NCBI GenBank assembly: GCA_041742355.1
Contig: JBGSIV010000284.1
Location: 1 to 31,440, forward strand
Source of the DNA: Candidatus Zixiibacteriota bacterium
GTDB lineage: Bacteria; Zixibacteria; MSB-5A5; GN15; FEB-12
DNA length: 31,440 nt
Reading direction: 5' to 3'
Numbering within the stretch: position 1 is the first letter of the stretch; every line of letters begins with the position of its first letter. The position numbers are program-made. Shown one piece after another: positions 3,001 to 6,000 of the stretch.

Positions 3001-6000
3001 CGGCGGTGAGGAGGATCCCCTGGTAGATGCCGTCGAACGATGCGGTCAGACCGATGGGCTGGAGCTGGTCGATGGCCTGGTGGAGGATCTGGCGGTTATC
3101 CGTGAAGGGGGCGTTGATCTGCACGCAATCGGCGAAGGAGACGATGGCGGCACGGTCATACGGGCCCATGCGGTCAACAAATGCGTGGGCGGCGTCGCGC
3201 GCGGCGGCGATCGGCTCCCCCTCCATGCTGAGGCTGACGTCGATCACGAGGCAGATCGAGGTGGGGCAGCCGAAGTCCTGCGCCCGGCGCAGCTCGAAAT
3301 CAACCGGGAATCCGTCCTGGGCGACAGTGAAGTCCTCGGCAATCAGGCCGCCGATCGGGAAATCGTTCTCGTCGGTAACATCGGCGTAAACTCGGATCAG
3401 CGGGAAAGCGGATTTATCGACGGTGATGGAGATCGAGGTGTCGCCCGCGGCGAAGGAAGTGGCCAGCGTTTGGGGCCGGAGGATAGAGCGATCGAACGGA
3501 TCGCCGACGGGACCGGAAGCCGCGGCGAGTGCGGCTGTGGCCAGGAAGAAAATTGCGGCGCCGAACGACATGAATCTGCGCATGGTCAGTAACTCCCCAC
3601 TCGTGCCCGCTCTGAGCCGAAGGGCCATCCGTAGCTTTTCGGTGCACGGTGACAGGTTGAATCCGCGCCTGCGGAGGCAGGTTGTTTGTATTCGACTAAA
3701 GATAATGCAGATTCGGAATCCGTCAATGACTAAGGTAAGAGCGCGGCGACGGCGTTGTCGAGAGCCGGGGCGAGCGACGACCACATAAAGCGTTGTGCCG
3801 CCGGGAGTGCGGAGGGGGATTCCGGAGCCCAGACAGAACCGGTGCGGGTGAAGCGGTCAAGGAGGGTCATGAGCTTTTTGTTCAGGGACTGCACAGAGCC
3901 ATCATAGAAGAAGTCGCCATAGGTATCAGGAGGGAATAGCTCCGGATAGGCGAGGCGGTTGGGGACAACCGGGAACGCGCCCGCGGCGGCTGCCTCCACG
4001 ATGGTCACACCGAAGAACTCGTGAATCGCGGTGGAAACGATGAGGTCGGACTCGGCGAGACAGCGCTCATAGTCGGCGCGCGATTCAAGGTAGCCCCAGC
4101 GGTCGATCCGGTCGGCGAAGGTCTCGCGGGCGGCGGCAAAGACCGGGGGCGTATGTTCGAACTGCTCGCCGATTACACTGAGGCGGAAGTCGACCCCGGA
4201 ATCGCGGAGGTGGCCCACTGCGGCAAAGAAGTCTTCGGGGTTCTTGTCGTACTCCCATCGGCCGGCCCAGAGAATGCGCAGGGGACCGGGAGTCCGGTCA
4301 GGGCGAGGCGGAATCGGATATACACCCTGGGGATAGACCGAGGATTTCTCGGCCAGTTGCTCAAGATGCGCCAGCGGCGGGTAGTCGGGCATGCGGCGGA
4401 AGAAGCGGCCGAGCTCGGCGAAGAACTCGCAACGGTGGAAATCGGAGTTGAACCAGACTCGGTCGGCGGCAGCGGCGGTCGCGAAGTTCGTCAGGGCGAA
4501 GTGGTAGTCGCGTTCACCGTGGTGCAGGGTCGGGTAGGTGAGCTGGTTCTCGTGGAAGTACGCGACCACCGGGATACTCGGGAGGATCGAGCGGGTCAGC
4601 CCGAGAAGTTCGGCTAGGTCGATCATGTCCGTGGCGACAAGGGCGTCCCACCGGTGACCGTCGTGATACCGGCGGGTGATCTCCTCGGCAAACGTGAACG
4701 CGGCGTGGCGCATGCGCCATTTCCACTTGTAGCCGGGCAGCGTGAGAAGCGTCCAATCGTGGCGGCTGTGGGCGCGCCAGCCGTCAACAAAAGCCCGATG
4801 GCTGCCGGCGTAGTATGGTTCAAGGACAAGCAGGTTCATGGTGTCTCCGGCAGAAAGGAAAGGGACGACGGAGAGGAAGTCAACTGGTTGCGCGGAATCG
4901 TTGAATTCGTTACCTTCGGCCGGTTACAGCAGTGAACGACAACAGGAGAGACAAATGCCGATTGGATTTATAGGCCTCGGTTCGCTGGGAATGGCGATGG
5001 CGCGCCGTCTGCGGGCGACCGGGATTGACCTGGTAGTCTGGAACCGGACGCGCGAGAAGGCCGAGGAGTTCGGCGGGGAGATCGCCGGAAGCCCGGCCGA
5101 AGTCGCCTCGCGGGCGGATACCATCTTCCTCAACCTGTTCGACAGCGGGGCGGTGAGGGACGTCCTGACGGGTCCGTGCGGGGTGCTTCAGGCAACCGGC
5201 GAAGGCAAGATCGTGGTCGATACGACGACTAATCACTTCCAGGCCGTCGGGGAATTCTACGAGTTGTGCGGGCAGCGGGGGATGCACTATGTCGAAGCAC
5301 CGGTGCTGGGAAGCGTCGTGCCGGCATCGCAGGGGAAGCTCACGATATTGATCAGCGGCGTGCCGTCGGCCTATGAGGCGGCCAAGCCCTACCTGGAAAA
5401 GCTGGGGGAGAAGCTGTTCTACCTCGAGCAGCCGTCGCTGGCGACCCGGATGAAGCTGGTCAACAACCTGGTGCTCGGATCGCTCATGGCGTCGCTGTCG
5501 GAAGCAGTTGTACTCGGGGAAGAATGCGGGATGAGCCGGGAGCAGGTGCTCGATGTGCTGGGCGCGGGGGCAGGGAACACCGGAGTGCTGACGGCAAAGC
5601 GGCAGAAACTCCTGACCGGGGATTTCTCCCCCCACTTCGCGGTGCGGGCCATCTACAAAGATCTGCAACTGGTCCAGGAGCTGGCCAGAAGCCTGAAGCG
5701 CCGGACTGTGGCCGGCGGAGCAGCCAAGGAATTGTACGGCCTGGCCGAGGAACGGGGAATGGCCGGTGAAGACTTCTCGGCGGTGTACAAGGTGCTCCGC
5801 GATCTATAAGAGCGTAACGCTCACAGGCCGCATAGCGCGGCCTGTGAGCTGAAGTCTGCTGAATGGGGGCTACTTCTTCTTGCCGTTACCTTTGTCTTTG
5901 TTCTTGCCGTTGCCCTTGCCGTTATCCTTGCCGGACTTGTCATCGGCGTTGGCCTGTTTGTTCTTGCCGGCTTTCTGGCTCTTCACATCCTGATTGATGT

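Follow-up and report, generated by a model that had tools for sequence, protein, structure and literature searches.

The window, the whole 31,440-nucleotide stretch of DNA analysed here, comes from a Zixibacteria genome and carries the gene for P0001 on its minus strand at positions 3730-4839. The gene encodes 369 amino acids, has an ATG start, includes its stop codon and contains no internal stops. Its neighbours encode a HIBADH-type dehydrogenase and a VWA protein with a T9SS tail (Pfam, NCBIfam), in agreement with an earlier note on this DNA that described a dehydrogenase, a T9SS protein and no tRNA-modification genes beside it. The true start of the dehydrogenase gene is probably ATG 4955 rather than 4838, since its Pfam and NCBIfam matches begin at residue 40-42 and the sequence AGGAGA precedes ATG 4955. 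Rfam gave no riboswitch or other RNA match in the window. The features of the locus are as follows.

3730-4839, minus strand: gene for P0001, predicted GT-B glycosyltransferase of the QTMAN family (ORF, Pfam, AlphaFold2 model)
4324-4833, minus strand: N-terminal QTMAN_N domain, residues 3-172, the presumed acceptor-binding half (Pfam PF12038, E 1.4e-58; translation checked)
3856-4284, minus strand: C-terminal GT1/GT4 nucleotide-sugar-binding domain, residues 186-328 (Pfam PF00534 and PF13692; Foldseek matches to retaining GT-B enzymes)
4798-4806, minus strand: G12-S13-H14 loop after strand beta1 (invariant in 55 bacterial sequences)
4708-4728, minus strand: K38-W-K-W-R-M-R44, after strand beta2 and at the start of helix 39-59 (alignments, model)
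4543-4557, minus strand: F95-H-E-N-Q99, after strand beta4 (H96, E97, N98 and Q99 invariant, animals included)
4444-4452, minus strand: F130-N131-S132, after strand beta5 (alignments, model)
4237-4263, minus strand: G193-R-W-E-Y-D-K-N-P201 (invariant in bacteria; RWEHDKxP aligned in animals)
3994-4023, minus strand: H273-E-F-F-G-V-T-I-V-E282, E-x7-E motif (E274 and E282 invariant; HEFFG kept in animals)
4840-4954, no strand: probable divergent intergenic region between the P0001 and dehydrogenase genes (AGGAGA upstream of ATG 4955)

P0001 begins with a QTMAN_N domain that scores 197.9 bits in Pfam, against a cut-off of 25, and covers positions 2-167 of the 168 in the model. The E-value of 1.4e-58 is close to the 3.5e-59 reported before for the same model range, and a six-frame search of the genome places PF12038 at this locus with 200 bits and with coordinates identical to those of the Pfam protein match. 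Glycos_transf_1 follows directly (PF00534, E 6.4e-13; PF13692, E 3.5e-11). Judged from its sequence, P0001 truly belongs to the QTMAN/DUF3524 family and is both intact and full-length. It has no evident signal peptide or transmembrane segment, and the whole chain was modelled as one globular GT-B protein. The protein is acidic, with a pI of 5.83. The median of the bacterial family is 6.02, with only 5/55 members above 7.5, and the three animal domains examined lie at 7.3-8.3. An acidic pI appears unlike that of an expected RNA binder, though this is not decisive.

The AlphaFold2 model of P0001 has a pLDDT of 94.5 and a pTM of 0.91. According to this model, P0001 is a retaining GT-B fold protein with two Rossmann-like domains, and the donor-side motifs are present. 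The top Foldseek matches are all GT-B retaining enzymes (probability 1.00, E 1e-11 to 1e-14, TM 0.6-0.7), and the nearest solved folds, at 11-19% identity, are glycogen synthase, MshA, GlgM, SenB, sucrose-phosphate synthase, BshA and PimA. A search by sequence gave no solved structure of any QTMAN-family member, and the search by fold gave only generic GT-B matches. The NCBIfam scores of P0001 are far under the cut-offs, at 35.8 against 400 for EpsE and 18.7 against 300 for SenB.

Conservation of the motifs was judged on 55 bacterial sequences and on a 13-row alignment that includes three animal homologues, from a tick, a snail and a tapeworm. Invariant across the bacteria and these three animals are H14, W39, W41, R42, Y94, H96, E97, N98, Q99, Y102, P103, D111 and R194. 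On the acceptor side, the motifs GSH, KWxWRxR, YFHENQLxYP and FNS are common to bacteria and animals, with a departure at GS in the snail, whose row (P0163) has K-H at the GSH positions; the other two animals have GGSH. Around the invariant H14 of the 13-row alignment, G12 and S13 are kept in at least 90% of rows, as are F130 and N131, though not in all, and K40 is replaced by H or Q in the animals. HENQ and FNS are presumably the family motifs named in the Pfam description of PF12038. By DSSP, GSH, WKWRM, HENQ and FNS each lie directly after a strand of the N-domain (beta1, 2, 4 and 5, in this order), and this placement at the C-terminal end of each strand would turn them towards the interdomain cleft.

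On the donor side, R194 and K199 are the conserved basic pair of GT4 enzymes and probably bind the diphosphate of the donor. The stretch HEFFGVTIVE, at residues 273-282, has the E-x7-E motif of retaining GT4 enzymes. K199 is invariant in bacteria and aligned with a lysine in the three animal homologues, and it is likely the counterpart of human K296. In a preprint, K296 of human QTMAN is reported as catalytic (10.64898/2026.06.28.735034).

The resemblance of P0001 to the animal enzyme extends over its full length, as the earlier note had claimed from other sequences. The tick protein P0159, which NCBI names tRNA-queuosine alpha-mannosyltransferase, is 37% identical to P0001 over 330 amino acids (E 1e-61), in a collinear alignment that starts at residue 1 of both proteins. 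Snail GTDC1 is 40% identical over 170 amino acids and 35% identical over a further 138, and the three animal homologues match a bacterial HMM over nearly its whole length. The previous count of 3990 homologues among 8000 scored, with the best 120 at 52-67% identity, was reproduced exactly. Their names include 'DUF3524 domain-containing protein' and 'glycosyltransferase involved in cell wall biosynthesis', and the single homologue that NCBI was said to call 'tRNA-queuosine alpha-mannosyltransferase domain-containing protein' is P0031. Full-length homologues are found in 54 other genomes, and the family amounts to 1063 clusters at 50% identity (E <= 1e-30). Fusions occur in the family, to a GH2 beta-mannosidase-like region in one homologue and to asparaginase II or a histidine kinase in others.

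A quick IQ-TREE tree was made from 99 rows after the broken or partial sequences P0124, P0126, P0141, P0161 and P0162 were dropped. In this tree a single split unites the animal sequences, which lie on a long separate branch, with six unnamed metagenomic sequences, and the bacterial phyla are intermixed. Since the tree is unrooted and the sampling biased, it carries no conclusion on the direction of transfer between bacteria and animals. A scan of viral contigs with the alignment gave no QTMAN_N protein, and the plasmids searched held no member of the family. A tblastn search of phages gave only a 31%-identical match to the C-domain, in Xanthomonas/Erwinia jumbo phages. The jumbo-phage glycosyltransferase concerned has no Pfam hit and adjoins genes for GlmS and a deacetylase.

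PF12038 occurs in 57/285 genomes of the phylum, or 41/198 of the high-quality ones, which upholds its reported presence in Zixibacteria at a count other than the 42/284 given before. The gene is present in the genome studied and in 3/3 other genomes of the genus. Its distribution within genera is patchy (carriers 2/3, 3/4, 2/4 and 1/3), and this, together with the intermixing of phyla in the tree, suggests an accessory gene. None of the 14 control model genomes carries a PF12038 gene; E. coli has Q-tRNA but no member of the family. The carriers, about a thousand clusters at 50% identity, belong to Planctomycetota, Zixibacteria, Acidobacteriota, Actinomycetota and other phyla, and a cultured one is Maioricimonas sp. 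JC845. In the ESM Atlas, several clusters of the family are commonest in Actinomycetota.

The route to queuosine in tRNA that had been described for this genome is indeed present, with Tgt at 514.6 bits, QueA at 402 and QueG at 302.9, all over their cut-offs. There are single genes for tRNA-Asp(GUC), tRNA-Tyr(GUA), tRNA-His(GUG) and tRNA-Asn(GUU), that is, for all four GUN tRNAs. Because Tgt, QueA, QueG and the GUN tRNA genes are all present, the genome is predicted to be able to make queuosine-tRNA, so that the substrate would be available in the same cell. QueC appears in this genome only as a 23-bit fragment and QueF reaches 25.5 bits, below its cut-off. De novo synthesis of preQ0/preQ1 is therefore apparently absent, and the precursors are probably salvaged.

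QueA is found in 272/285 genomes of the phylum, in 54/57 PF12038 carriers versus 218/228 non-carriers, and co-occurrence with the queuosine pathway is uninformative here because QueA is near-universal. Among carrier genomes from other phyla, 47/50 have QueA. Five carriers that lack QueA were checked for Tgt, which four of them have; neither gene was seen in the fifth, a 2.3-Mb MAG whose completeness is unknown. The co-occurrence thus has no confirmed counter-example and also no discriminating power. GluQRS is absent from the genome studied and from all 285 genomes of the phylum at the curated cut-off. It occurs in 2/50 carrier genomes versus 29/301 in a sample from the phylum of G006, and it is not strictly exclusive with PF12038. 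An anti-correlation between PF12038 and GluQRS was considered and rejected as not usable, since many of the GluQRS matches are barely above the cut-off.

The gene stands alone. When the 853 ORFs of 80 related loci were clustered, no neighbour proved to be conserved; the largest non-self cluster draws on 10 loci, and its position varies among them. Of the 135 proteins encoded directly beside the gene, 131 were searched with Pfam (68 loci), leaving out two antisense ORFs that overlap the match and two more. These 131 flanking proteins include one glycosyltransferase, two sugar epimerases and one DegT aminotransferase, and are otherwise heterogeneous. With so few sugar genes among them, the P0001 family does not appear to belong to a polysaccharide cluster. 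The nearest other glycosyltransferase in the window is a GT9 enzyme encoded 25 kb away. A role in a cell-envelope or polysaccharide cluster was rejected, since the gene is not embedded among glycosyltransferase, sugar-nucleotide, flippase or polymerase genes. A role as an anti-phage defence glycosyltransferase (GT4-conflict, PF20706) was also rejected, the match being only to the generic C-domain at 32.5 bits. PADLOC returned no families, and there are no defence neighbours in the window.

Within the clade of P0001 itself, a search of the 80 loci for tgt, queA, queG and thiI found none of them less than 8 kb from the gene, and no GUN tRNA gene lies nearby. In the P0155 clade, which joins the branch with the animal sequences (SH-aLRT 92, quick tree), the family gene directly follows a full-length copy of the tRNA thiolase gene thiI, which encodes ferredoxin-like, THUMP and PP-loop domains; both genes are on one strand, -27 to +135 nt apart. 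This arrangement occurs in 20/30 metagenome loci of the P0155 clade with at least 900 nt of upstream sequence, and a further eight cases are partial at contig ends. The other 10 close loci and all 19 more distant ones lack it, and so it seems specific to one lineage. The thiI operon of the P0155 clade points to a link with tRNA modification at the level of the family.

P0001 is best explained as a QTMAN/DUF3524-family enzyme, a soluble cytoplasmic retaining glycosyltransferase that is GT4-like and has a GT-B fold. Only one function has been established by experiment for the family, the mannosylation of Q34 from GDP-mannose to give an alpha-glycoside (10.64898/2026.06.28.735034; PMC12518689). 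The most likely job of P0001 would be the transfer of a hexose from a nucleotide sugar to a hydroxyl of the cyclopentenediol ring of queuosine at tRNA position 34. If it works as the animal enzyme does, GDP-mannose would donate the mannose, tRNA-Asp would be the target and an alpha-linked glycosyl-queuosine the product. The C-domain, with R194, K199, E274 and E282, may hold the nucleotide sugar, and the four invariant N-domain motifs may form an acceptor pocket for a flipped-out Q34.

The earlier note had read P0001 as a bacterial queuosine glycosyltransferase. The intact family membership, the shared motifs and the Q-tRNA pathway partly support this reading, in which queuosine is the putative acceptor. 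The choice of acceptor is drawn from homology; GT4 enzymes change acceptors readily, and the long separate branch of the animal sequences also counts against it. That P0001 glycosylates queuosine-34 of tRNA, with the sugar, the tRNA target and the activity all presumed, is given slightly less than an even chance. The broader proposal, that carriers of DUF3524/QTMAN proteins, this Zixibacteria genome included, decorate Q34 of their own tRNA with a sugar, is tentative and judged somewhat below even.

A rather doubtful but still plausible alternative is that the bacterial proteins use another acceptor, either a soluble small molecule (a compatible solute, thiol or cofactor precursor) or a cytoplasmic glycoconjugate, and that activity on tRNA-queuosine was gained solely in the lineage that gave rise to animals. 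Small-molecule or glucan GT-B enzymes are indeed the closest among solved structures, but at 11-19% identity these matches reflect only the shared fold. The same alternative would fit the lower pI of P0001 relative to the animal domains, the patchy, accessory distribution and the lack of a Q-gene neighbourhood in the 80 loci; yet one clade has a thiI operon that speaks for tRNA, and no partner enzyme such as a phosphatase, deacetylase or ligase is conserved beside the gene in those loci. The GH2 beta-mannosidase-like fusion hints at glycan metabolism, and the asparaginase II and histidine kinase fusions also count for this alternative. However, the N-domain forms a family of its own whose invariant motifs are kept from bacteria to animals, which would be hard to explain if the acceptor had changed.

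It is unlikely that the target is a different 7-deazaguanine, such as free queuosine, queuine or a salvage intermediate, epoxyqueuosine in tRNA, another GUN tRNA or deazaguanine in DNA. In favour of such a target, the genome apparently lacks preQ0/preQ1 synthesis and would depend on salvaged precursors, and target tRNAs do vary, since in the mosquito manQ was located in tRNA-His and not in tRNA-Asp (PMC13737055). Against it, no transporter or salvage gene is linked to genes of the P0001 family, no QTMAN_N protein was found in viral contigs, the phage tblastn match covered the C-domain only and PADLOC gave no match. A decaying or inactive remnant without a catalytic role is highly improbable. 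The patchy distribution and the loss of the gene in close relatives might be read that way, but the frame is intact and all the conserved donor- and acceptor-side residues are present, the model is confident, the gene is found in 3/3 other genomes of the genus, and homologues in 54 genomes are full-length.

If P0001 and its bacterial relatives do glycosylate queuosine, then glycosyl-queuosine would be an old bacterial tRNA modification rather than an animal invention, and the enzyme would have reached the animal lineage later, which bears on the origin of the animal enzyme. It would be an alternative to glutamyl-queuosine and a new hypermodified nucleoside in the tRNA of several large, poorly studied bacterial phyla, and it would offer a bacterial model for the effect of Q-glycosylation on decoding. 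If the bacterial enzymes use another acceptor instead, the family would be a case of a glycosyltransferase recruited to RNA. A review treats galQ and manQ as vertebrate modifications and gluQ as a bacterial one (PMC12710937). A literature search, which did not extend to the 2023 discovery paper, found no paper on DUF3524, PF12038, bacterial members of the family or bacterial glycosyl-queuosine, though none of the 14 control model genomes carries the gene. The novelty claimed before is weaker than stated, as bacterial members of the family are already labelled by Pfam, NCBI and ESM Atlas, and P0001 is best described as an already-catalogued homologue with a predicted function.

P0001 shares the GT-B fold, the E-x7-E motif and the diphosphate basic pair with the GT4 enzymes MshA, BshA, SenB, sucrose-phosphate synthase and PimA, but identity to them is only 11-19% and their N-domains belong to other Pfam families. 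The QTMAN_N motifs are not known to be a feature of those families. GluQRS (YadB), the glutamyl-queuosine synthetase, decorates the cyclopentenediol of Q34 in bacterial tRNA-Asp. It would be a functional analogue of the activity proposed for P0001, although it is a GluRS paralogue with an unrelated fold and a different chemistry. GluQRS could occupy the hydroxyls that P0001 is proposed to use, and none was found in the same genome. QTGAL (B3GNTL1), the tRNA-queuosine beta-galactosyltransferase, is the other known RNA glycosyltransferase that acts on Q34, as P0001 is proposed to do. The preprint places QTGAL in another family, as an inverting enzyme that uses UDP-galactose and the homoallylic hydroxyl in tRNA-Tyr (10.64898/2026.06.28.735034), and no similarity between QTGAL and P0001 was seen in any search.

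Animal QTMAN (GTDC1) has the same arrangement of QTMAN_N and GT1 domains as P0001, collinear from residue 1, with 35-40% identity between P0001 and the invertebrate members; the comparison covers invertebrate sequences (tick, snail and tapeworm). The GSH, KWxWRxR, YFHENQLxYP, FNS, RWEHDKxP and HEFFG motifs are common to both, and the predicted retaining GT-B fold of P0001 fits the alpha-linkage reported for manQ. Unlike the animal enzyme, the bacterial proteins are shorter (about 370 amino acids) and more acidic, and have K40 where animals have H or Q. The hosts differ as well, in that the bacterial host makes its own tRNA queuosine, whereas the animal host salvages queuine.

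P0001, the 369-residue product of the minus-strand gene at 3730-4839, is read from an unbroken frame of 369 codons with an ATG start. Pfam scores a complete QTMAN_N domain in it (PF12038, or DUF3524) at 197.9 bits, the cut-off being 25, with E 1.4e-58 over residues 3-172 and model positions 2-167 of 168. Behind it comes a C-domain of the GT1 type at residues 186-328 (PF00534, E 6.4e-13), and the whole bears out the gene and architecture described in an earlier note. NCBIfam has no specific model for it, the top matches (EpsE and SenB) lying far under their cut-offs. The gene is single-copy in its genome, which is 93.8% complete. 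The homologue figures of the note were reproduced exactly (3990 among 8000 scored, the best 120 at 52-67% identity), and the protein names run from 'DUF3524 domain-containing protein' to one 'tRNA-queuosine alpha-mannosyltransferase domain-containing protein', a label that the note had anticipated. When 1.84 billion cluster representatives were searched exhaustively, 1063 clusters fell in the family at E <= 1e-30. On sequence comparison, the homology of P0001 to the family of QTMAN (GTDC1), the animal tRNA-queuosine alpha-mannosyltransferase, is solid. Databases already label this family, in the Pfam domain name, the one NCBI protein name and ESM Atlas cluster names, and the P0001 gene belongs to a known, already-named family.

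The P0001 gene is flanked downstream by a VWA protein with a T9SS tail and on the other side by a divergent HIBADH-type dehydrogenase, both of which overlap or abut it as longest-ORF calls. The first two lines below give these flanks; the first line and the last three form a series of very large proteins in the window, secreted or at the surface.

440-3784 (-), VWA/T9SS protein, 1114 aa, longest-ORF call
4838-5809 (+), HIBADH-type dehydrogenase, longest-ORF call
11555-15727, FG-GAP/Rax2 beta-propeller protein with Big_5, 1390 aa
17854-20763, M28 peptidase with a T9SS tail, 969 aa
21282-24032, protein with six HYR domains, 916 aa

ATG 4955 is the probable start of the dehydrogenase, since AGGAGA precedes this codon and the start fits domain matches beginning at residue 40-42; for the VWA/T9SS protein the probable start is ATG 3628 or a later codon. 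Elsewhere in the 31-kb window are genes for secreted proteins, peptidases, transporters, RsgA and, at a distance, a GT9; the window has no Rfam matches.

Homologues of P0001 have no conserved neighbour across 80 loci from other genomes. The 131 flanking proteins include one other glycosyltransferase, two epimerases and one DegT aminotransferase, and seven are related to RNA or translation (a TadA-like deaminase, two PheT, RtcB, KsgA, Tex and Rho). At all 80 loci, tgt, queA, queG and thiI are missing from the 8 kb around the homologue, and so are GUN tRNA genes. A solitary, scattered gene fits, weakly, tRNA-modification enzymes and not envelope glycosyltransferases. At one Planctomycetota MAG locus (L067:444-3860, minus strand) a Cas12b (C2c1)-type CRISPR nuclease gene adjoins the QTMAN-family gene as a chance neighbour. 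The 367-aa 'glycoside transferase' of the jumbo phage PhiXhv-12 of Xanthomonas (L084, record positions 116650-130964) has no Pfam match and was rejected as unrelated to QTMAN_N. It is preceded by annotated GlmS and a BshB-like deacetylase and followed by a GFO/IDH/MocA oxidoreductase, a gene order that suggests a phage amino-sugar pathway.

The family tree intermixes phyla and places the animal sequences with six metagenomic proteins on a long separate branch (SH-aLRT 99%); since it is a quick, unrooted tree with biased sampling, it speaks neither for nor against a bacterial origin of QTMAN. Two loci labelled Phycisphaerae (L054) and Anaerolineales (L071) have proteins that lie near each other in this tree (terminal branches 0.13 and 0.089), with an AMPK1_CBM-domain gene upstream in both; given the different phylum labels, a contig is mis-binned or there has been a recent transfer.

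P0155, a homologue about 43% identical to P0001, joins the animal branch in this tree. Its set comprises 80 metagenome loci, of which 30 have at least 55% identity to P0155 and at least 900 nt upstream. In 20 of the 30, thiI lies directly upstream on the same strand (gap -27 to +135 nt), and in 8 more the contig edge cuts into a partial thiI; thiI is missing upstream in all of 19 loci more distant from P0155. The gene upstream encodes a complete ThiI, some 400 aa long, in which ferredoxin-like, THUMP and PP-loop domains are all present; at L100:3775-6149 its stop codon overlaps the start codon of the QTMAN-family gene. The pair (in L100, L104 and 18 more of L085-L164) lies downstream of pyrD, pyrF, a phosphoribosyltransferase gene and gmk. 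The pairing supports a tRNA-directed role in the P0155 clade; it is confined to that clade and does not reach the clade of P0001.

The genome of P0001 has Tgt, QueA and QueG over curated cut-offs, as claimed before, and one tRNA gene each for Asp(GUC), Tyr(GUA), His(GUG) and Asn(GUU). QueC matches no more than a 23-bit fragment within a 680-aa frame and QueF scores 25.5 bits, under the cut-off, so neither is convincing and preQ1 or preQ0 is probably salvaged by the organism instead of made; with the genome 93.8% complete, true absence is unproven. These observations concern contigs C66, C280 and C182. GluQRS decorates the same queuosine ring in E. coli; it (TIGR03838) was not found here, and none of the 285 phylum genomes has it over the curated cut-off.

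Within the phylum PF12038 has a patchy spread: 57 of 285 genomes carry it, with variation within genera and a concentration in one family (47 of 107, own genome left out). QueA is near-universal (272/285 genomes; 193/198 of high quality), so carriers (54/57) and non-carriers (218/228) do not differ. The three phylum carriers without QueA are fragmented MAGs, with Tgt in both of the two tested. Among carriers from other phyla QueA is found in 47 of 50 genomes; two of the other three have Tgt, and the third, a 2.3-Mb MAG, has no Tgt match either. GluQRS occurs in 2/50 carriers against 29/301 genomes sampled from the phylum of G006, an anti-correlation with PF12038 that is not usable. Queuosine is genuinely patchy in lineages such as Actinomycetota, and several ESM Atlas clusters of the family have Actinomycetota as their commonest phylum. 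Family f8 of the phylum (three genomes, two of them 97-99% complete at 2.1-2.2 Mb) has no QueA at all.

The earlier note read P0001 as a bacterial queuosine-tRNA glycosyltransferase. Its observation of an intact, full-length QTMAN-family gene with solid homology is confirmed; the function is plausible and stops short of proof. Against it stand the intermixed family tree with its long animal branch, and further findings. P0001 has a pI of 5.83 and its bacterial relatives a median of 6.02 (5/55 above 7.5), and the three animal domains lie in the neutral to basic range (7.3-8.3). In the homologue P0127 (1244 aa, 57.8-kb contig) residues 16-344 make up a complete QTMAN_N and GT1 module, and a region resembling GH2 beta-mannosidase is joined to it at 414-1237; P0127 is a single one-member cluster, and either a genuine fusion or a read-through may explain it. 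Asparaginase II or a histidine kinase is the fusion partner in other homologues, and some such fusions may be gene-calling artefacts.

It is quite possible, at a little under even chances, that P0001 glycosylates queuosine in tRNA. A different acceptor, for which the acidic pI and the P0127 fusion speak and against which the conserved N-domain motifs speak, is somewhat less likely. Action on another deazaguanine substrate is unlikely. An inactive remnant is highly improbable for this intact frame, patchy as the family is.

The literature searched, which did not take in Zhao et al. (Cell 2023), a paper that may discuss bacterial homologues, has no mention of DUF3524 or PF12038; within the same scope, the available portions of texts on QTMAN with queuosine hold no reference to bacterial homologues.

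The proposed glycosylation of queuosine by P0001 draws on comparison with the animal proteins. Residues 1-240 retrieved three animal homologues among targets longer than 420 aa, a filter that drops most bacterial members, and these independent sequences uphold the homology to animal QTMAN noted before. A tick protein, a tRNA-queuosine alpha-mannosyltransferase by NCBI name (annotation only), is 37% identical over 330 residues from residue 1 in both (E 1e-61), and snail GTDC1 is 40% identical in the C-domain and 35% in the N-domain. An HMM of bacterial sequences matches all three over nearly its whole length. Invariant residues in 55 bacterial sequences include G12-S13-H14, W39-K40-W41-R42-M43, H96-E97, Q99, Y102-P103, D111 and N131 in the N-part and R194, E196, D198-K199, E274 and E282 in the C-part; with animals added, H14, W39, W41, R42, Y94, H96-Q99, Y102, P103, D111 and R194 are still invariant. 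ManQ is reported in mosquito tRNA (PMC13737055).

The AlphaFold2 model of P0001, from a 55-sequence alignment, is confident throughout (mean pLDDT 94.5, pTM 0.91). Foldseek places it among retaining GT-B enzymes at 11-19% identity (archaeal glycogen synthase, MshA, GlgM, SenB, sucrose-phosphate synthase, BshA and PimA), and a sequence search found no solved structure of any QTMAN-family member. Two hallmarks of retaining GT4 enzymes are present in the C-domain: the basic pair R194/K199, and at residues 273-282 an E-x7-E motif (HEFFGVTIVE). In the model, each of four invariant N-domain motifs comes directly after a strand of the N-terminal Rossmann fold: GSH after strand 2-10, KWKWRMR after 28-35, FHENQ after 91-95 and FNS after 127-130. 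In GT-B enzymes such strand ends border the interdomain cleft, the acceptor site, and the four motifs may thus face it. QTMAN transfers from GDP-mannose to form an alpha-mannoside, according to a preprint (10.64898/2026.06.28.735034), a product with which the retaining mechanism of the P0001 fold agrees. The strongest argument for queuosine glycosylation is that the presumed acceptor half is the family-defining part and is conserved from bacteria to animals.
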